Shown here: piece after piece, positions 3,741 to 23,078 of the stretch
How the letters are laid out: each line of letters starts with the position of its first letter
Position numbering within the stretch: position 1 is the stretch's first letter
Assembly (NCBI GenBank): GCA_015075645.1
Contig: JABTUF010000007.1
Location: 300,501-364,500 of the forward strand
DNA from: Burkholderiales bacterium
Lineage (GTDB): Bacteria; Pseudomonadota; Gammaproteobacteria; Burkholderiales; Casimicrobiaceae
DNA length: 64,000 nt
Reading direction: 5' to 3'
Notes under the pieces: generated by a model
Databases searched by the model: none
What the model saw: the letters and a program-made list of their open reading frames with translations, nothing else
What the model was told of the DNA's origin: nothing
Position numbers and translations under genes: made by a program

Positions 3741-4605
3741 ATGCGCAACCTGAACTACGAGCTGAAGCAGCTGTGCCGTCGCAACCGCGACGGCAGCTTC
3801 GCGACGCAGCGCGATCGCGAGCGCGTGCTCGACCTGGTAGCCAGTCAGCTGCACGACATGGGCTACCGACACATGGCCGCGGCAAGCCTCAAGCCCAAGC
3901 ACGTCGAGCGCCTGGTCGAGCGCTGGCAGGCGGAAGGCCTGGCCGTGGGCACGATCAAGAACCGGATGGCGGAGCTGCGATGGTGGGCCGAGAAGATCGG
4001 CAAGCAGAACGTCATCGCGCGCGACAACGACCACTACGGTATCGGCCACCGGCAGTACGTCACCAACGTCAGCAAGGCGCGCGAGCTGAGCGGCGGTGAG
4101 CTGGCCAGGATCACCGACCCCTACACGGCGATGTCCCTGCGGCTGCAGGCGGCCTTCGGGCTACGGCGGGGCGAGTCGATCAAGATCCGGCGGAGTGGGC
4201 CGATCGTGGCGACCGGCTGGCGCTCAAGGACACCTGGACCAAGGGCGGGCGGCCGCGCGAGATCCCGATCCGCAACGCGGAGCAGCGCCAGGTGCTCGAC
4301 GAGGCCAAGGCGCTTGCCGGCAGGGGCAGCCTCATCCCGGCGGAGCGCAGCTACGTCGAGCAGTTGCGGCGCTCGAGTACCAATGCGCGGCCGCCGGCGT
4401 GCACCGCATCCACGGCCACCGCCACCAGTACGCGCAGACCCGCTACCGCGAGCTGACCGGGTGGCCGGCGCCGGCCGCCGGCGGGCCGCGCTCGCGAGAG
4501 CTCACGCCCTCGCAGCGCGAGCTCGACCGCGAAGCCCGGCTCACGATCAGCCAAGAGCTCGGCCACGAGCGCGAACAGATCACGGCGGTGTACCTCGGCC
4601 GGTGA
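3741..4605 (+). pseudogene. tyrosine recombinase (phage-integrase family), two frameshifts
   Basis: The N-terminal part is in ORF 3456..4700, starting at MRNLNYELKQLCRRNRDGSF...GLRRGESIKIR. The middle part is in a third frame (PAEWADRGDRLALKDTWTKGGRPREIPIRN...SYVEQLRR). The C-terminus is in ORF 4096..4605 (EYQCAAAGVHRIHGHRHQYAQTRYRE...HEREQITAVYLGR). Shifts lie near 4190 and 4368. Confidence 0.7.
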
Positions 4606-4747
4606 CTCTCTCTATTGGATTGCGGACTTTGGCCGGTCGTGACGGGTGCAATCAGATCGTTGTGGCGCACACGTCGGGCAACCCGCATGCGGACGTTTGA
4701 CGTCTGAGCTGCACATTGAGCGCCACAAAACACGGCGCTCAGACCGC

Positions 4748-5490
4748 TCAAGCTGGCATCCCATCCCACGATTGCCCGTTCAGTTCGCGCCCGTGCGCCT
4801 TCTTCGAGCGCTTCTGCCTGTCGGCACCCCCGGCACCCCATTGCTTGAAAAAGAAAGCAACGTCCGCTTCGTCGAGCACTGACGGCGCACGCCTCTCCTG
4901 CCCCACCAGCGCGCATTGGCGCGCGCGCGCCCTGATTCGCCGCCGACGATGACCCAATGAATGTCACTTGAGGTCTATTCGGCCTACGTCTTCCAATAGC
5001 GGTTCCACGGATAGAAAGCGGATCGTCGCGTCTACTTCACGCAGGACGTCAATGCGAGGGACTCCAATCGCTTCACGCGATTCTCGACCGAGACGCCTTC
5101 GCTGTATTGGCGGCACGCGCCGAGTACGGCAGAAGTCGCGCATGCGCTCGGCGCGCTTGGTCAGCACTTGGAAGGTATGCCAATGCGCCTGCGCGCTATG
5201 ACCTGGAAGACACTCTCGACATGGTCGAACGGCACCTTCTCGTGGAAGAGGTCGGACATCGAGTTGACGAAGTAGACCGTCGGCTTACGTCGTTCCAGCG
5301 TGGGCTCAGCCAAACGCTCGGGCATCAATGCGAGCTTGAACCCGCGCTCGTAGCCCTTCAGGCCCATTGCCTGCAGGCGACGAGCCATGCCTTCGGCGTA
5401 GCAGTTCTTGCAGCCAGGCGAGACCTTTGTGCAACCGATGGTCGGATTCCAGGTCTGCTCGGTCCACTCGATGCGACTATAGGTGCTCAT
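4748..5490 (-). pseudogene. DUF5131 (phage Gp37/Gp68) family protein with three-Cys motif; three frame breaks
   Basis: The gene starts MSTYSRIEWTEQTWNPTIGCTKVSPGCKNCYAEG at the ATG at 5490. It continues as AHWHTFQVLTKRAERM...RFLSVEPLLEDVGRIDL (ORF 4964..5167), then [13 protein letters not shown]...RRQC in an unlisted frame, then [13 protein letters not shown]...WDGMPA (ORF 4748..4957). Shifts lie near 5197, 4967 and 4885. Confidence 0.75.
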
Positions 5491-5492
5491 GC

Positions 5493-6675
5493 TCAGTCTC
5501 CTGTTCGTTGGAGGCGGTCGCCATCCTTGCAGTGCAGCGGCTTGTCGGGCGGCGGCGGCTCGCATCAAGTTCCGGACGCGGCCGGCGTCGATCAAGCGCA
5601 CCAGCGACGCCTGTAGGTCGCCGGGGAACCAGTCCTTGTCTTCCAGGATGTCGGCGAAGGCCTTTTCGTCCACGCGGCGCTCCCCGGCAGCGAGATAGTG
5701 GAGCCAGAAATGATCGACGTCATCAGCACTGGCGTGACCGGCCTCAGTATCAACAGCAGTGCCGAACATGTCCTGGACTCCGGTTTCGCGCTCGCGCTTG
5801 GCGTCGCGGAGTTCAGCCCGCACCTGCTTTTGCACCAAGTCCACGGTTTCCGAAATCGTCATGAACTCGATGACGCCCAGTGGATGTGTAGTGACATAGA
5901 CGAGGTGGTACTTGGGCCGTTGTTTTTCGCGGTCTAACACGCGCACATAGGCGGAGCGGGGCGGAAACTGCTTGCGAGTGGCGTCGACACACACCCTCTT
6001 CAAATTGCCGCGGTAGGCCTTCAAGATCGCATGTTCACGCTGTGCTGGCGTCATGTCATCGACGCTGATGGCATCGCCAAGCAACTCTGCCATTTCGCTG
6101 CGCCACTCGCGCATCGACATCGTGCGATTGACGAAGTCGTACATGAAGTTGATCAGAAACTCAGAGCGCGGGCGCTCGAGCAGCGGCTTCAGCGTACCGA
6201 CGCCGACATCCTTCCAGCCCTTTGGGTCGATAAAGAAGAAGGTAAACGCGTCTTTGCCCGCCCATTGCAGGACGTCGGCGCGTTTGGCAACGAAGTCGCC
6301 GTTCCATGCCTCGGCGTGCATGCCGCTGGGGGTGTTGTCGGCCAGATAGGCTTGGAGCCTGGCGAAGGGCCCAGGCTCCTTCTCGATGTACAGCGCGCGG
6401 ATCGTCGCAGAGACGCCGTTCCGGCCGAGCTTCTGCCGCACGACATCTAGCGTTTGCAGCGAGATCGCGATGGACGTGCTCTTGAGATCATCGGAGACGT
6501 CACCCCAGGGCCCCGCGAAGCAGTCGACGTATCGGAGTTCGATGTGCCCGCCCTTCCGGGCTGCGCCGCCCACGATGAAGAACAGCTTCTCCAGGTAGCC
6601 CTTGAGCAGCTCATGCTTGATGAAGGCCTGCTCGCGCCCGTCATAGGCGTCAGGCACCGCCCCGATTTTCGCCAA
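5493..6675 (-). CDS. three-Cys-motif partner protein TcmP-like (as sequenced it reads through into the DUF5131 gene)
   Basis: Part of ORF 5161..6774, with motifs KHELLKGYLEKL, RYVDCFAGPWG, FFFIDPKGW and EFLINFMYDF. The proposed start is TTG at 6675, with GGAGG 4 nt upstream. An alternative frame ends ...DKPLHCKDGDRLQRTGD with TGA at 5493-5495, 2 nt before the DUF5131 ATG. This suggests a 1-nt indel in the GCC-repeat run near 5540. The family call is from memory of TIGR04474. Confidence 0.55.
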
Positions 6676-6691
6676 GGTGCCTCCGTTGACG

Positions 6692-6709
6692 ACCGAACGA
6701 TCGTTCGGT
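6692..6709. promoter_or_regulatory. perfect 18-bp palindrome ACCGAACGATCGTTCGGT (CGAAC-N4-GTTCG, Cheo-box-like); candidate operator of the LexA-like repressor
   Basis: Read directly from the sequence. It is centred in the 45-bp divergent spacer between the TcmP-like start (6675) and the LexA-like start (6721). Confidence 0.5.
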
Positions 6710-6720
6710 AGCGTAAGCGA

Positions 6721-7294
6721 ATGGATGACGACGGTCAATATCTTGATGCACTGCGCGCCTACTACGCCCAGCACGGCGTCCTTCCGTCGTACGCCACCAT
6801 CGGGCGGCTGGTCGGCATGTCCTCCAAGGCCTCTGTGGCCGAGATGGTTGAGCGCCTGAAGCGAGCGAGCTACTTGGACAGCACACCGGACCGCCGGCTA
6901 CAGCCCGGACGCCGATTCCACGACCGTGAAGTAGCTGACTATGTACGTGCTGGCCAGCCGAGTTCCAGCGGCGACATCCTCACAGAGACCCTGAGCCTTG
7001 ATTCCTACCTGACGAGAAATCGCCGCAACACAGTCCTGGTGCGCGTAAAGGGTGACTCAATGACCGAAGCGGGCATTCTGGAAGGCGACATTGTGGTGGT
7101 GACGCGCCGGCCCGATGCTCGTGCAGGCCAGATCGTCGTCGCGATTATTGACGGTGAGTTCACGCTCAAGCGTCTTGCTTTCGAGCGCGGTCGGCCCGTG
7201 CTACGCGCGGAGAACAGCGTCACCCGCCGCCAGGCCGCGCGGCGGATTCGAAGTCTTTGGGGTTGTGGTGGGATTGGTTCGCCGATACCCGTAG
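6721..7294 (+). pseudogene. LexA-like S24-peptidase self-cleaving repressor; one frameshift near 7215
   Basis: ORF 6721..7485 has an N-terminal LexA-type wHTH, an AG cleavage context (YVRAGQP), the catalytic VKGDSM and FTLKRL. The expected C-terminus FEVFGVVVGLVRRYP, with its stop at 7292-7294, lies in the +1 frame. Confidence 0.7.
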
Positions 7295-7384
7295 GTGGGC
7301 AGAGTCGGCGCAGCGGTCACATCAAAGTGCGCGCCACCAGGGTTGGCCACGTGATCGCCGGGCTACCCGTCAGCAGTACTGACA

Positions 7385-7424
7385 GAAAAGAAAACGCCCG
7401 GGCAACCGTGAGGCTGCGCCGGGC
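7385..7424 (-). terminator. rho-independent terminator downstream of the DUF932 gene
   Basis: The minus strand reads CGCCCGG-N17-CCGGGCG followed by TTTTCTTTTC, 12 nt after the stop at 7436. Confidence 0.5.
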
Positions 7425-7435
7425 GAAGGGGAGGA

Positions 7436-8499
7436 CTAGGCGGCGTGGGCCACCTCCTTCCAGTCGCCGGGGGCCAGCTCGATGAGCTTGCCGCCGAGCG
7501 CCTCGAGCTCGGTGGCACGGTCGTAGTCGTCGACGTCCTGCGAGAAGTGCGTGACGGCGTTGACCAGGCCATAGGCGCTCAAGTCGCCTTCGACGATGAG
7601 GTGCCGCAGCACGCCGGCCCGCTCGGTGTCGTTGAGCGTGTAGCGGTTGGCCAGCACCTCGACGGACTTCACCGGGTCGCCCGTCAGACGGATGTCGCGC
7701 GTCTTCTGCAGCTTCTGCGCGACCTGCCGGAACGTCGCTTCGGAGACGGCCGCCTCGACCACGTCGCGCACCTTCAGGAAGAAGGCCCGGTCGTCGGCGG
7801 CGAGGGTGTCGTCCCTGAACACCTGGACCGACTCCGCTTCCGTCGTCAGCGCGCGCCCGACGTGCGTCTTGCGCAGCGCGTGGTCCGACGCGATCAGACC
7901 GTTCCTGCACACCAGCCGGAAGATCAGCGGCTGCACCGAGAGCGTGCCGCAGCCGACCTCCGAGTTGGTGATGACGATGCCGGCCTGGACGATGTCGCCG
8001 GGGGCGACTTCGAACTCGACGCGGGGCGTCACGACCTTCAGGTACATCTTCGTCTCGGTCAGTTCGACCGATTCGAAGCGGGCACCTTCCAGCCGCTGCA
8101 GGATCGGCAGGACGTTCTCCGCAAGATCGAAGTTGTCCAGCCGGCGGTAGCGGTCCGACAGCACCGCCCTCACCTGCCCGTCCAGCGTGCGCAGCATCCG
8201 GCGATCGCCGTCGGACTGCAGCCAGGTGTTGACGTTGCGATCGAGCAGCGCGGGCTGCTCGGTGCGCATGCGCTCGAAGTAGGCGAACGGGATCTTGAGC
8301 TTGTCGGCGAGCTGCCGGCGGCCAGACCCGTGACGCCGTATTCGCCGTCGCCCTGGCGGGAGTCGACGATCAGCTTGAGGTCGCCGCCCTCATCGGTACG
8401 GCACTGCAGGAACGACGAGGGCACGACCAGGTCGCGCTTGGAGGAGATCTGGCGCTCGAGTTCGCGGGCCAGGTCGACGAGAGTACGTCCGCTCTTCAT
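7436..8499 (-). pseudogene. DUF932 domain protein; one frameshift near 8320
   Basis: The C-terminal 277 aa are in ORF 7436..8269. The N-terminus [20 protein letters not shown]...GEYGVTG is in ORF 8170..8553, starting at the ATG at 8499 with a GGAG upstream. The connecting peptide RQLADKLKIPFAYFERM is in the frame of the downstream ORF. Confidence 0.75.
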
Positions 8500-9227
8500 G
8501 GTGAGACTCCATAGAGGTTGCGGAGACGGCCCCCGCCATGCGGGGATGCACATCCCCGCTGGGGTGAAGAACCGGACCGGGGGATCCCGATCCGGATGGG
8601 GTGCGCGACGGAAGTCGCGCGGGGTTCACGGGCTACAACAAGGCCGCGTTCGGCGAACGAGACGGCGTTGCTGCCGGCGATCACGATGTGGTCGAGCACG
8701 CGGATGTCGACCAGGGCCAGCGCCGAACGCAGCGACTGGGTCAGGAACTCGTCGGCCCGGCTGGGCTCGGCGACACCCGACGGGTGGTTGTGCGCCAGGA
8801 TCACGGCCGCTGCGTTCAACGCCAGCGCCCGCTTGACCACTTCACGCGGGTACACGCTGGTCTGCGTGAGCGTCCCCCGAAACATTTCCTCGGGCGCGAT
8901 GACCCGGTTCTGTGCATCGAGGAACAGCACCATGAAGACTTCGTGGTGGCGCTCGGCCATCGTGATCCGCAGGTACTCGCGCACCGCGGCTGGTGAGGCC
9001 AGCATGTCCCGCTCGCGCATCGTCTCGGCCAGAGCGCGACGGACCAGTTCCCTGGCCGCCAGCAGCTTGGCTCCGACGGACGACGACGGCACCTGCTGTG
9101 CCACTTCCGCGTTCAGCAGCCGCGACAGGCTGCCGCTCGCTTCCTTCAACAGATTCGCTGCCGTTCGCGGCCCCACCAGCGTGCTGAGCAGGGCGGCGTC
9201 GGACATCGACTCGATCGATCCGCACAT
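8496..9227 (-). CDS. radC: RadC-family JAMM/MPN-domain protein (3' end probably extended by a 1-nt insertion)
   Basis: The ORF contains HNHPSG and SRADEFLT...LDHIVI...VSFAERGL. A stop that would give the usual ...ERGLL end sits one frame over at 8633-8635. The 45-aa tail as sequenced overlaps the DUF932 start. Confidence 0.75.
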
Positions 9228-13555: not shown

Positions 13556-14907
13556 CACGCCTCCTCCGCTGCCGAAGCCGTCGTGCCCGCGGCACCCGGC
13601 TGCCGGCGAAGACCACCCGATCGCCTGGCACAAGCCAGCAGTTCCCAGAATGCCGTTGCCGACGGGTCGTCGGGATCGACGAGCCATTGCAGGAACGCCG
13701 GCGCCGCCGCGTTCGACGGCGCCGCGTCGGGCTCGAGCTGGCCGAGAAGCCCCGCAAGCAGACACCAGGCGCGATGGCGCGCCGGATGCTCCGCGTCGCC
13801 ATCGGCGAGCGTCGCGATGCGCAAGCCGGCTGCAGACTGCAGTTCGTGATCGACAACGCCGGCGATGCCGACGGTCTCCGCAAAGCGCCTTGCCCGCGTC
13901 AGCAGTTCGTCTGCCTCCGTGCCATCGCCGTCGGCAGAGGGGTCATGCGTCGAAGGCAAGGACGCGCCGGTAGCAGGAGTGCCGGCCACCGGCGCCGATG
14001 TACTCACCTGAGGCTCGCGGCCGCCCTTCGACCGAAGTCCCATGCGAAGCGAGTCGATGGGTTCGCCGAGGTGATGCGCCAAAGCGACTTCGCAGGCCTC
14101 GCAGGCGGCGGAGACGCTGAAGGCGCCGGTGTGCGGGTACTGCTGCGCGATCCGTCGAAAGACGGGTTCGAACACCTGGCCGTAGAGGTCGTCCTCCGTG
14201 ATCGAGCTTCGCGACTGGGCGTAGCGCTTCAGCGCGTTCAGTCGCGGCTGCATCGTCTTGACGTCGAGGCCGGAGAGATCGGTCACCGCCTCGCCGATGG
14301 TTCGCAACCGCTCGGTGGCGAAGAGATGCAGACCGAGCGTCGCGGTGTTCACCGCCAGGCCCAGCGCGTGGAGCGCGTCCTCCAGCGGCCGCAGCGTCAG
14401 GGTGCGGCCCTGCTCCCGTTCGAGACGAGACTTGAGCGCGACGATCCCGCACGCCTTGTCCCAGAAGGTCATCTCGCCGCGCTGTTCGTTCTCGATCAGG
14501 TGCGCGGTGAGGACGTGGCTCTCCGATCGCCACGGCCGAAACAGCACCACCAGCTTTCGGAAGCGCGGATCGCGCGTCTCGGCCCACAGTTGCCGCAACG
14601 CCAGCAGCCGCGTGTTGCCGCCGGCCTCGACTATGAAGTGCGACTCGCCGGGGCGGCGCGTCACCGTCAGCGGACTTCGCAGGCCACTGGTGCGGATCGA
14701 CTCCTTGATGTCGTCGAACTTCGCGTTCGACGCGCGCCGCGGGTTGTGCTCGTAAGGCTGGATCTCGTCGACGGCGAGCTCGATCTGCGATTCCGTTCGC
14801 GGATCACTCTGACCGGCGAGATCGCGGGCGTTGTTGCCCGGGTTTCCGACCCGCAACGACTCGGCCACCAGTCTTCGGCGCTCGTCGACCGACACCTTGC
14901 CGTTCAT
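13555..14907 (-). CDS. ParB-like protein of the PFGI-1-class ICE ParB family (TIGR03764-like)
   Basis: 450-aa ORF with a ParB/Srx-fold N-terminus: IQPYEHNPRR...IKESIRTSGLRSPLTVTRRPGESHFIVEAGGNTRL. It is coupled to parA by a 4-nt overlap. Confidence 0.7.
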   Translation of the reverse strand: MNGKVSVDERRRLVAESLRVGNPGNNARDLAGQSDPRTESQIELAVDEIQPYEHNPRRASNAKFDDIKESIRTSGLRSPLTVTRRPGESHFIVEAGGNTRLLALRQLWAETRDPRFRKLVVLFRPWRSESHVLTAHLIENEQRGEMTFWDKACGIVALKSRLEREQGRTLTLRPLEDALHALGLAVNTATLGLHLFATERLRTIGEAVTDLSGLDVKTMQPRLNALKRYAQSRSSITEDDLYGQVFEPVFRRIAQQYPHTGAFSVSAACEACEVALAHHLGEPIDSLRMGLRSKGGREPQVSTSAPVAGTPATGASLPSTHDPSADGDGTEADELLTRARRFAETVGIAGVVDHELQSAAGLRIATLADGDAEHPARHRAWCLLAGLLGQLEPDAAPSNAAAPAFLQWLVDPDDPSATAFWELLACARRSGGLRRQPGAAGTTASAAEEA

Positions 14908-15749
14908 GCCGACCGCTCCTCTGTACGCGAGTCGCCGGCGTGAACGCCCTGCAGGCTGGGAATCAGTTCCCAGGCGAGCTGGTGCATCACCGTGGACGCG
15001 CTCGGCATGACGCCGTCGCGTCGCGGCTCGTGCCGGTGCACCGGGATCCGCAGCGTGGCGGCCTCCTTGTAGGCCTTGGCGTGCGGCACGACGGTGTCGA
15101 GCACCGACACCCTGCCCTTCAGGCGGATGAAGTCCTCGCGGATGCCGCTCGCGATCAGGCGGGCGTCGGCCGTGCGGTCCTGCCGGTAGATCACCGCCTT
15201 TACCGGCCCGAGCGTGGCACCCAGGGCGCTGCCCGGCTCCAGCCGGTCGAGCAGTTCCATCGTGCCGTCCTTGAACTCGCGCGCCGATAGAACCTCCGGC
15301 GTGATCGGCGAGACGAGGATGTCGGCAGCCATGAGCGCCGCGTCCTGCAGCGGGCCGATGGCGCCCTGCGTGTCGATCAGGACGCAGTCATAGGCGTTCG
15401 CCACGACGGCGGCCTGCAGCGCGAAACGCAGTCGGAAGCCGCGGTCGATCCGGTTGAGCAGCCAGTTTGGAAGATGGCCCTCCGGGTCGTCCGACACGAC
15501 GATGTCGAGGTTCGGGAAGACCGTCGCCGTGATGCACGCGGCGGTCACCTCGCCGCGCAGGATCACCTCGGTGAGTCCGGCCGCCGGCTGCGGCGTCGCC
15601 AGTGGGAAGTACTTCGACAGCGAGGGCTGGACGTCCGCGTCCACGAGGAGGACGCGCAACCCCATGTCGGCGAGCAAGGCGCCGAGGTTGGCCGTGAGCG
15701 TCGTCTTGCCGACGCCGCCCTTGGTGCTGGTGACGGTGAACTTGATCAT
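14904..15749 (-). CDS. parA: ParA/Soj-type partition ATPase
   Basis: 281-aa ORF with the deviant Walker A motif TSTKGGVGKTT. Confidence 0.85.
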   Translation of the reverse strand: MIKFTVTSTKGGVGKTTLTANLGALLADMGLRVLLVDADVQPSLSKYFPLATPQPAAGLTEVILRGEVTAACITATVFPNLDIVVSDDPEGHLPNWLLNRIDRGFRLRFALQAAVVANAYDCVLIDTQGAIGPLQDAALMAADILVSPITPEVLSAREFKDGTMELLDRLEPGSALGATLGPVKAVIYRQDRTADARLIASGIREDFIRLKGRVSVLDTVVPHAKAYKEAATLRIPVHRHEPRRDGVMPSASTVMHQLAWELIPSLQGVHAGDSRTEERSA

Positions 15750-15780
15750 CGATTCCGTGCCGATTCAGGTCGGTCATCAG

Positions 15781-21782: not shown

Positions 21783-23078
21783 TCAAATCGGCGCCGCCGT
21801 CGTCGCCACCTTCATCGTCGGCGGCAGCAGCGTCGGCGTGTGCGTCTTCCCCGCCACCCAGGCATCGATCATGTCCGCCCACTCCTGCAGCATGTGGCGG
21901 CGCTGCTCCGCGTACTCCGCCTTGTTGTAGACGCCGCGCGATGAGCGCCCGTCTTCGTGGGCCAGGCACTTCTCGATCCAGTCGCTGTTGAAGCCGAGCT
22001 CGTTCAGGATGGTCGAGCCGGTGCGGCGCAAATCGTGCACGGTGAAGGGCTCCAGCGGCAGCTTTGCTTCCTTGGCGCGCTCCGCGACGATCTGGGTGAC
22101 CCGGTTGAGGGTCGCCTTCGACATGCAGCGGTCGGCGTCGTAACGCGAGGGCAGCAGGAATTTCGAGCCGCTCGCGCAGGTGCGCAGCGCCACCATGATG
22201 TCGAGTGCCTGCTGCGACAGGTAGACGTTGTGGGGTTTCCCGGCCTTCATGCGGCTCTTCGGGATCGTCCAGACGGCGTTCTCGAAGTCGACCTCGTCCC
22301 AGGTCGCCTCGATCAGCTCGCTCTTGCGCACGAGCGTGAGCAGGATGAGGCGCAGTGCCAGGCGGATGGTCGGCAGCGTCGCCGTGGTGTCCAGCACCCG
22401 GTGCATGATGCGGATCTCGGTCGGCGACAGTGCGCGGTCCTTGGCCACGAAGGTGGCGATCGACGAAGGACCAACCTCGTCGGCGGGATTCGGCGCCTTC
22501 TCGCCGTGCAGCGCCGCGAAACCGAAGACCTGCTTGACGATGTCGCGCACGTGCACGGCCGTCGCCGGCGCTCCGCGCGCCTTGATCTTGGCGCACAGGT
22601 TGCGCAGGTCTTCCGGCCCGATCTCGGACATCAGCCGGTTGCGGAAGACCGGCAGGATGTCCCGGTCGATGATGCTCTTACGCATCGACCTGGTGCTGTC
22701 GGCCATCCTGGCCTCTTCCAGCCAGCGCTTGGTGAATTCCTCGAAGGTCTGGGCCTCGGACCGTCGGCGCTTGTCGCGCTGCTTTTCCTGGGCGGGGGAG
22801 ATGCCTTCGGCGATGGCCTTTCTCGCCTCCATGCAGCGCTCGCGCGCCATGAGCAGCGAGATTCCGTCCTTCGTGCCGTAGCGGCCGATGGTGAGCGTCT
22901 CGCGGCGGCCGTTGAGCCGGTAGTCGAGGCGGAACGTGATCGTGCCCCTCGGGGAGACGGTCACGTACATCCCGTCCCGGTCGGCGATCTTGTAGGTGGT
23001 GCCCTGGGGCTTGATGCCCCTGAGCGTGCCATCGGACAGCATCGGCGGTCCCTCCTCTCGGAGAAATTTTACCGTCAT
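21783..23078 (-). CDS. int: P4-type tyrosine integrase with DUF4102-like N-terminal arm-binding domain
   Basis: 431-aa ORF. N-terminus: LSDGTLRGIKPQGTTYKIADRDGMYVTVSPRGTITFRLDYR. Catalytic region: HDLRRTGST...LAHEDGRSSRGVYNKAEY. Confidence 0.85.
   Translation of the reverse strand: MTVKFLREEGPPMLSDGTLRGIKPQGTTYKIADRDGMYVTVSPRGTITFRLDYRLNGRRETLTIGRYGTKDGISLLMARERCMEARKAIAEGISPAQEKQRDKRRRSEAQTFEEFTKRWLEEARMADSTRSMRKSIIDRDILPVFRNRLMSEIGPEDLRNLCAKIKARGAPATAVHVRDIVKQVFGFAALHGEKAPNPADEVGPSSIATFVAKDRALSPTEIRIMHRVLDTTATLPTIRLALRLILLTLVRKSELIEATWDEVDFENAVWTIPKSRMKAGKPHNVYLSQQALDIMVALRTCASGSKFLLPSRYDADRCMSKATLNRVTQIVAERAKEAKLPLEPFTVHDLRRTGSTILNELGFNSDWIEKCLAHEDGRSSRGVYNKAEYAEQRRHMLQEWADMIDAWVAGKTHTPTLLPPTMKVATTAAPI

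Follow-up and report, generated by a model that had tools for sequence, protein, structure and literature searches.

A LexA-like repressor beside a decayed TcmP/DUF5131 gene pair, and comparative evidence for SOS control of the module

The stretch of DNA analysed here (the window, 64,000 nucleotides of contig JABTUF010000007.1, assembly GCA_015075645.1, from a Burkholderiales bacterium) contains a gene for a LexA-like repressor that faces away from tcmP, which is followed in turn by a DUF5131 gene. We read these three genes, with a probability of about 0.65, as a decayed copy of a two-enzyme module switched by DNA damage through the SOS response, and carried on the remnant of a PFGI-1-type integrative and conjugative element (ICE). 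The evidence comes chiefly from relatives of the locus, where the same two genes recur beside repressor genes of the S24 family or behind host LexA boxes. Loci other than the window are given by number (L001 and so on).

A first-pass annotation of the window, made from its letters alone, had placed a LexA paralogue at 6721, 45 bp from a divergent tcmP-like gene, with a DUF5131 gene bearing a cysteine triad directly behind the latter; ORF calls, profile matches and start sites agree with it on each point. The plus-strand open reading frame (ORF) from the ATG at 6721 matches Peptidase_S24 with 76 bits and the winged helix-turn-helix (wHTH) profile LexA_DNA_bind (PF01726, cut-off 23.7 bits) with 26.7 bits; the genuine C-terminus of the protein (GGFEVFGVVVGLVRRYP, then stop) sits in a different frame, ending at 7294. 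On the minus strand a 537-aa ORF (5161..6774) holds TcmP at residues 52-306 (TIGR04474, 98.6 bits against a cut-off of 53 bits) and the first 100 positions of DUF5131 at residues 433-528 (PF07505, 119 bits). The read-through from tcmP to DUF5131 is due to two indels (5543 and 5565) near the 3′ end of tcmP. ORFs 4964..5167 (profile positions 108-173, 47.6 bits) and 4748..4957 (positions 204-243, 41 bits) supply the rest, and the three DUF5131 fragments jointly span positions 2-243 of PF07505. The triad motif GCTKVSPGCKNCY, with the spacing C-x7-C-x2-C, is found near the N-terminus of the DUF5131 translation.

Two metagenome contigs served as references. L001 is 98% identical over window positions 4337-7984 and has all three genes intact (LexA-like protein, 191 aa; TcmP, 394 aa; DUF5131, 243 aa); L090 is 90% identical, and in it the integrase (288 aa) and DUF932 (354 aa) are intact. 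Over 94% of its length the TcmP of the window matches the intact copy P0001 with 100% identity. With frames corrected, or in the intact copies, the proteins match TcmP, DUF5131 and S24/LexA_DNA_bind, the families that the first-pass annotation had named for a profile search.

The intact LexA-like protein is collinear with Escherichia coli LexA (7b5g) over residues 11-197. VRAGQP of the LexA-like protein aligns with VAAGEP at the cleavage site (Ala84-Gly85), GDSM with GMSM (Ser119), and TLKRL with TVKRL (Lys156). L001 reaches 26.9 bits on PF01726. The LexA equivalog TIGR00498 (cut-off 110.95 bits) is not reached by either copy (90.5 bits in the window, 104.5 bits in L001), and we therefore regard the protein as a paralogue and not the housekeeping LexA.

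The gap of 45 bp between the tcmP TTG and the lexA ATG holds a perfect 18-bp palindrome, the putative operator (Table 1). In an alignment of 11 loci with the divergent arrangement (A3; TcmPs 51-100% identical to P0001) the core CGAACG-N2-CGTTCG is invariant, as are the TTGAC flanking it on each side and the TA..T of two -10-like hexamers; on the tcmP side ATTGAC and TAC..TA do not vary. Conservation of the palindrome had been proposed as a check on the annotation, and it extends beyond these 11 divergent loci to LexA-like genes of about 62% identity, which have the operator in front of them as well. The lexA ATG lies 6 nt after TAGCGT, so the repressor mRNA would be leaderless or nearly so, and the TTGACC of the tcmP promoter falls inside the first lexA codons. 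The operator follows immediately downstream of the tcmP -10 (TACGCT). That a conserved palindrome sits within conserved promoter hexamers lends indirect support to operator binding and to RecA-stimulated autocleavage. Viral contigs scanned for the exact palindrome gave three matches, a chance-level number, none of them with the module.

For the survey of neighbourhoods, one genome per species was scanned with the TcmP alignment, which gave 80 loci (1.07 Mb in total), and the ORFs of these loci were then compared with E. coli LexA and the LexA-like protein. In 48 of the 80 loci, tcmP or DUF5131 has an S24 gene as its immediate neighbour. Chance would give about 0.003 such neighbours per locus, and a coincidental pairing of lexA with tcmP was rejected. 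The linkage that the first-pass annotation saw once is thus recurrent. Two other S24 genes occur in the 1.07 Mb, both UmuD-sized and non-adjacent, each with an SOS-like box at its 5′ end.

By score, the S24 proteins sort into three classes, and every class has a conserved operator of its own. In arrangement (a), that of the window, a LexA-like gene diverges from tcmP > DUF5131 across CGAACG-N2-CGTTCG (seven loci, and one more with tcmP interrupted). Arrangement (b), found at 25 loci, reads S24 > DUF5131 > canonical TcmP and then a window-type TcmP, on the same strand except in a few loci where the last gene is convergent. Its S24 protein passes the UmuD model and has some 75 N-terminal residues without a Pfam match; its operator, TGATTTCG-N3-CGAAATCA, overlaps the S24 start codon, with a second copy about 130 nt upstream in L029, L042 and L048. 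The four-gene operon of L017 (5293-9173), whose TcmPs score 227 bits (canonical) and 94 bits (window-type), is an example that about 24 other loci resemble (e.g. L014, L018-L020, L025 and L027); in Thauera sinica the operon stands beside a P4-type integrase at guaA. In arrangement (c), at 11 loci, a LexA-like gene precedes DUF5131, the window-type tcmP is mostly convergent, and the operator is GTGTACG-N2-CGTACAC, abutting TAAAAT. The S24 gene precedes DUF5131 in all 36 loci of (b) and (c) combined. In more distant loci, from Nitrospirota and gammaproteobacteria, TcmP is 41-43% identical; in four of them lexA-like > tcmP > DUF5131 share a strand, and in two of the four GAAC-N4-GTTC boxes mark the lexA start.

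Relatives of the repressor lead back to the same partner. Six LexA-like relatives of 61-66% identity were sampled (L094-L099); the window-type operator is present before their genes, and five of the six face a DUF5131 operon, all five sharing the layout TTGAC / CCGAACG[AT]TCGTTCGG / TAtCGT / ATG. What accompanies DUF5131 differs: it is TcmP in L096 and L099, in L095 a shorter TcmP (154 bits) that lacks the wHTH, nothing in L097, and in L094 an inserted nucleotidyltransferase (Polbeta-type) gene with a 98-aa ORF, possibly a pair of the MNT/HEPN type. Since this partner varies and L097 has DUF5131 alone, we take DUF5131, not TcmP, to be the constant partner of the repressor. L094 also has two 100% identical 191-aa LexA-like genes (5001-5576 and 7760-8335) with the same promoter and operator (boxes at 4975 and 7734). 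They flank DarT-DarG (DNA ADP-ribosyltransferase and macrodomain); one copy faces DarT, and the other faces the nucleotidyltransferase, the 98-aa ORF and DUF5131. The repressor/operator unit may therefore be a portable SOS switch that serves other cargo.

The pair also persists where the repressor does not. In L002 (4718-5092) lexA breaks off exactly at the cleavage site and has begun to decay (73% identity), while tcmP (90%) and DUF5131 (97%) are intact, as they are in many samples. Loci of this type include L003-L007, L088 and L089, and the block is seen on at least 24 contigs; it consists of lexA-tcmP-DUF5131 with an integrase remnant, in a region rich in toxin-antitoxin genes (BrnT, Fic, Gp49/HTH_37, MqsRA). 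From the intact pair beside a decaying lexA we conclude that the two enzymes are tolerated without the repressor, which speaks against a lethal toxin. In a Candidatus Thiodiazotropha metagenome-assembled genome (MAG), an 82-aa ORF (L070, 7657-7905) directly upstream of tcmP has a weak match to the LexA DNA-binding domain (E = 1.6e-4) and may be another truncated LexA-like gene. The closest relative in the genome collection, a long-read MAG with a 1.13-Mb contig (L008), has its tcmP split by an insert of about 1.1 kb (6848-7983).

At loci without an S24 gene, the operon opens with a DUF5131 of another subfamily, which matches PF07505 over its full length (265-283 bits), followed by a canonical TcmP (200-215 bits) and a window-type TcmP (95-105 bits). 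Here the canonical beta/gamma-proteobacterial LexA box, CTGT-N8-ACAG, is found 20-25 nt before the DUF5131 start. Strict matches to this box number 12 in the 1.07 Mb, and six of them are at the DUF5131 or tcmP starts listed in Table 1, from which we infer that the host SOS regulon of Duganella, Herbaspirillum, Cupriavidus and relatives includes these operons. The first-pass annotation had suggested a damage-induced activity of SOS type from the repressor of the window; two more S24 classes with their own operators, and canonical host LexA boxes heading DUF5131 operons, strengthen that suggestion. Because damage control appears to have been reached in four ways (three S24 classes and host LexA boxes), the comparative evidence is strong that damage induction belongs to the biology of the module.

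TcmP of the window is a divergent subtype (canonical TcmPs score 200-227 bits on the same profile). The AlphaFold2 (AF2) model of P0001 (predicted local distance difference test, pLDDT, 86) has a class I S-adenosylmethionine (SAM) methyltransferase fold, its best matches being RlmJ and other methyltransferases (E ~1e-4, probability 1.0). Invariant residues fall at the putative SAM-binding motifs: VDCFAGPWG, E98, D127-F128 and D150-P-x-G-W. A C-terminal wHTH is indicated by a weak match to PF22560. In intact copies the DUF5131 start lies 2 nt past the tcmP stop, and at the same loci TcmP diverges faster than DUF5131 (41-55% against ~70% identity).

DUF5131 is highly conserved (70-98% identity across phyla) and abundant, with at least 8000 database clusters below 1e-5, at least 598 IMG/VR stretches and at least 181 GenBank phage records. 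C20, C27, C30 and a GGESG motif are invariant in an alignment of bacterial and phage members. The SFLD / RadicalSAM.org classification assigns the family to Megacluster-5-2 of the radical SAM superfamily, beside 5-3 with spore photoproduct (SP) lyase (PMC9477430). It also matches TIGR04471 (rSAM_mob_pairA) weakly, at 85 bits against a cut-off of 355. Annotated phages carry DUF5131 in their early regions, near the integrase in phi1026b, and in a Mycobacterium abscessus prophage in the RecE/RecT region, one small ORF downstream of a DNA methylase. Repressor control of the whole phage genome would already couple such a gene to induction. Searchable literature gives no function for TcmP or DUF5131, in agreement with the first-pass annotation, and no SOS link. 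PDB sequence searches with TcmP returned no significant relatives.

In an intact copy, a dimer of the 191-aa LexA-family protein would bind the single palindrome, which falls between the -35 and -10 of the repressor promoter and, on the side of the divergent tcmP gene, directly follows the -10; given this position, one bound dimer would shut both promoters. On DNA damage a RecA filament would form, the repressor would cleave itself at its Ala-Gly bond by means of the Ser/Lys dyad, and the tcmP-DUF5131 pair would be derepressed. The radical-SAM-superfamily enzyme DUF5131, most like SP lyase, and TcmP, with its methyltransferase fold, would then act together, most likely on DNA, to judge by fold and motif.

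What they would do to it is a more tentative matter. Our leading suggestion, held at somewhat short of even odds, is repair or processing of damaged DNA, by analogy with the SOS-regulated radical SAM gene splB (COG1533), which recurs as an SOS gene and is so regulated in several phyla (PMC8565304). We favour this role because SOS control is reached by several routes, host LexA boxes among them, because splB is itself an SOS gene, and because DUF5131 is highly conserved and the pair persists free of its repressor. A wider proposal, on which we would wager a little less, is that the module represents an unrecognised SOS-induced radical-SAM pathway for the repair or other chemical processing of damaged DNA, recruited at least four separate times and shared with temperate phages. 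Such phages, induced by the same damage, would need that pathway.

Several observations weigh against this account of the window. Repressor binding, RecA-dependent cleavage and induction are all steps that we infer from sequence. A consensus promoter and terminator scan of 6500-6900 at a threshold of 9 of 12 called nothing, for which reason the promoter assignment is drawn from conservation. DUF5131 lacks the canonical radical-SAM motif CX3CX2C, its own spacing being C-x7-C-x2-C, so its membership of the superfamily follows the SFLD / RadicalSAM.org classification. Its AF2 model is poor (pLDDT 62, from a shallow alignment); the best-probability fold matches are to SP lyase (4rh0, 4fhc; probability 0.94-0.97) and are weak (E ~0.04, TM-score ~0.4), and we give them little weight because the model has low confidence and a shallow alignment. 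PDB sequence searches with DUF5131, as a single sequence and as a diverse profile, found no significant relatives. The link to S24 genes is moreover limited to a single DUF5131 clade and hardly occurs on phage contigs: of 80 loci in a DUF5131-seeded metagenome sample, 7 have an adjacent S24 gene, and these 7 all belong to the 19 closest relatives, and on IMG/VR contigs an S24 match lies within 4 kb of DUF5131 in 4 of 80 loci (TcmP matches in ~20 of 80). Finally, neighbourhoods rich in toxin-antitoxin and defence genes, and the listing of the pair in PADLOC, suit a defence role at least as well.

Defence is indeed the main rival, if a fairly unlikely one. The pair would be an anti-phage effector, listed in PADLOC as the candidate PDC-M30, which the S24 repressor would keep off until infection or damage activates RecA, much as damage-sensing regulators serve other defence systems. 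Both components are present and adjacent in the window (PDC-M30B, 145 bits; PDC-M30A, only 31 bits), and the neighbours in relatives include BrnT, Fic, HigBA, MqsRA, HEPN, Mrr and PDDEXK genes. The L094 copy that diverges from DarT-DarG under the same operator fits as well, and in S. meliloti tcmP adjoins the defence gene Hna (PMC12445080). The PDC systems are nevertheless candidates only, with no phenotype in searchable literature, and conservation of DUF5131 on the scale given above would be unusual for an arms-race component. An abortive-infection toxin would not be expected to stay intact where its repressor has decayed, as the pair does in L002-type loci. DUF5131 is, besides, common in phages themselves and sits in their early regions, and the SOS-box operons with no S24 gene nearby resemble ordinary members of the SOS regulon.

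Whatever the module does elsewhere, the copy in the window cannot work as its sequence stands, with DUF5131 interrupted by indels and the 3′ ends of lexA and tcmP frame-shifted. Against L001 there are 15 indel events, 10 in DUF5131, two each in tcmP and lexA, and one in the integrase. Those in tcmP are 1-nt deletions at 5543 and 5565, within the last ~25 codons, which leave the frame intact for 368 of 394 codons; in lexA the last ~26 codons are out of frame owing to 1-nt deletions at 7221 and 7232. The comparison with L090 adds frame-shifting indels in the integrase (3724, 4190 and 4372), the N-terminus of DUF932 (8320) and the C-terminus of RadC (8531). The first-pass annotation, which saw frame breaks in all three module genes and took the copy to be perhaps inactive, is thus confirmed and extended to three further genes.

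The breaks might instead be errors of assembly or consensus in a copy that is really intact and functional, which we think unlikely. In its favour is their distribution: 12 of the 15 lie within 694 bp (4872-5565, P = 6e-7), and several are complex multi-base changes, odd for neutral decay, next to a 1.1-kb tcmP body with just two differences from L001 (99.8% identity). Neither neutral decay nor uniform sequencing error accounts for this pattern; uniform error was considered as a source of the breaks and deemed unlikely, the indels being clustered, while a local assembly error may have contributed. Against assembly error, all 15 indels are specific to the window in a joint alignment with three independent relatives (L001, L002 and L008), further breaks affect the integrase, DUF932 and RadC, and the four non-island genes tested (a GntR-aminotransferase, a Cys/Met pyridoxal phosphate enzyme, a P4-type integrase and an AMP-binding enzyme) all have full-length domain matches.

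A role other than repair or defence would be sequence-directed DNA modification on behalf of the mobile element, for instance anti-restriction marking ahead of its transfer or packaging, with TcmP giving specificity, DUF5131 the chemistry, and SOS control coupling it to induction of the element. The methyltransferase fold and wHTH of TcmP suit such a role, as do its faster evolution, the many loci with two TcmP paralogues behind one DUF5131, the early-region phage copies (once just after a DNA methylase) and the integrases that adjoin the module in the window, L090 and L017. We nonetheless consider it quite improbable: a modified base is known in no host, L097 has DUF5131 without any TcmP, and in the Nitrospirota and Desulfobacterota-type loci checked the immediate upstream genes are metabolic or transport genes and not those of mobile elements.

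That S24 repressors control SXT-type ICEs and prophages, and that the LexA-like gene is part of the ICE backbone, with DUF932 on one side and the integrase on the other, might make it a general master repressor (SetR- or CI-like) of the ICE, only incidentally next to tcmP, which we judge highly improbable since no second operator copy turned up in the ICE-derived 16 kb of the window with one mismatch allowed, since the LexA-like-DUF5131 unit occurs in L095, L097 and L099 without an integrase, DUF932 or an ICE-family Pfam match among the called neighbours, and since lexA-tcmP-DUF5131 moved as one block into the L002-type loci.

The preferred reading, an SOS-switched module, has its nearest likenesses in several known systems. 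Like CI and SetR-type S24 repressors, the protein of the window would, by autocleavage after damage, derepress genes of a mobile element, and DUF5131 does occur in early regions of temperate phages; it differs in having a LexA-type wHTH and not the CI-type HTH, and in a single operator with a two-gene target and no lysogeny or transfer switch. Cassettes of the type lexA2-imuA-imuB-dnaE2, reportedly described by Abella and co-workers in 2004, are said to combine a LexA paralogue with the SOS cargo it travels with. There too an additional LexA-family repressor, capable of lateral transfer, is physically tied to its target genes and has an operator of its own, unlike the host SOS box; the cargo here is a radical-SAM / methyltransferase-fold pair in place of translesion polymerases, and the genes diverge across one shared operator. 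A non-canonical betaproteobacterial LexA with the motif GAACGaaCGTTC has reportedly spread by lateral transfer (Sanchez-Alberola and co-workers, 2015). The operator core GAACG-at-CGTTC is of the same motif type, a lead that concerns the operator motif only; that LexA is a global SOS regulator of its host, in contrast to a 191-aa paralogue with a single local target.

PADLOC PDC-M30 (and M41B) comprises the same two protein families. It is a candidate system; no PADLOC model matches the S24 protein of the window, and SOS wiring is unmentioned in searchable literature. With splB the module shares a radical-SAM-superfamily enzyme under LexA control, SP lyase being the best-probability fold match of DUF5131. 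It differs in family (PF07505), in the C-x7-C-x2-C spacing, in the one or two TcmP proteins that usually accompany it, and in the S24 repressor of its own that often takes the place of host LexA; a repair role for DUF5131 is suggested by analogy only. The apparent novelty here lies in how systematically the TcmP/DUF5131 module is wired to the SOS response.

One DUF5131 clade with TcmP, placed under DNA-damage control by several regulatory solutions, makes an orphan family experimentally testable, and cultured strains with intact modules exist. Carriers of S24-type loci include Thauera sinica CGMCC 1.15731, Paracidovorax citrulli DSM 17060 and Rubrivivax rivuli KYPY4; loci with a host SOS box occur in Duganella sp. 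BJB476, Herbaspirillum sp. GW103 and Cupriavidus neocaledonicus STM6070. Should the chemistry prove to be DNA repair, the SOS response would gain a radical-SAM branch in addition to splB; should the role prove to be defence, the module would be an SOS-gated defence system. The copy in the window would be a dead relic, of value only as a pointer to the module.

Table 1. Features of the module and its surroundings in the window, and SOS boxes at loci without an S24 gene
Feature	Position	Strand	Remarks
Tyrosine integrase pseudogene (Phage_int_SAM_2 / Integrase_1 type)	3741..4605	+	Convergent with DUF5131; 288 aa intact in L090
DUF5131 (Gp37/Gp68, radical-SAM-superfamily) pseudogene	4748..5490	-	ATG 5490; three reading-frame fragments; PF07505
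tcmP	5493..6675	-	TTG 6675 behind GGAGG; TIGR04474
lexA promoter (putative)	6686..6714	+	TTGACG 6686-6691, 17 nt with operator inside, TAGCGT 6709-6714
Operator (putative), perfect 18-bp palindrome	6692-6709		ACCGAACGATCGTTCGGT; core CGAACG-N2-CGTTCG
tcmP promoter (putative)	6710..6738	-	TTGACC 6738-6733, 17 nt, TACGCT 6715-6710
LexA-like repressor	6721..7294	+	191 aa when intact; wHTH + S24
DUF932 gene, ICE backbone	7436..8500 (8500 approximate)	-	PF06067; broken near 8320; 354 aa intact in L090
SOS box before DUF5131	L064:1092		TACTGTATATAAATACAGTA
SOS box before DUF5131	L074:5762		Duganella
SOS box before DUF5131	L076:5762		Duganella
SOS box before DUF5131	L080:5746		Herbaspirillum
SOS box before DUF5131	L043:10273		Cupriavidus
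SOS box before tcmP	L013:7940

The ICE that the first-pass annotation had named as the setting of the module is supported by three markers: a PFGI-1-type ParB (ICE_PFGI_1_parB, TIGR03764, 190 bits against a cut-off of 144), a partial PFL_4669 protein (94.5 bits, cut-off 110.7) and a protein of the STY4534 family (158.7 bits, cut-off 160). Since lexA, tcmP and DUF5131, and also the integrase, DUF932 and RadC, are all frame-broken, the island looks like a decayed remnant of a PFGI-1-type ICE, and the element may run past the start of the window. Among the ORFs scanned in window 1-16 kb no relaxase or type IV secretion genes turned up. The integrase matches PF12834 in its N-terminal frame and has its C-terminal motif in other frames. 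A megablast search of the region against plasmids gave a single 261-bp match of 77% identity (Variovorax) and nothing else useful.

Just beyond the integrase, on the minus strand at 1062-2465 and 503-1186, lies the N-terminal half of an SNF2/ResIII helicase, apparently truncated or frame-broken, with weak similarity to the DpdE, DISARM DrmD and ZorD models; in L078 an SNF2 helicase is likewise upstream of tcmP. ARAGORN calls a 93-nt tRNA-Thr(GGT) at 15687-15779, overlapping the 5′ end of ParA (14904-15749, minus strand); its length and position are unusual, and it could be a false call or the remnant of an attachment site. A second P4-type tyrosine integrase (21783-23078, minus strand), apparently intact with Arm-DNA-bind_3, Phage_int_M and Phage_integrase domains, suggests another integrated element farther along the window.

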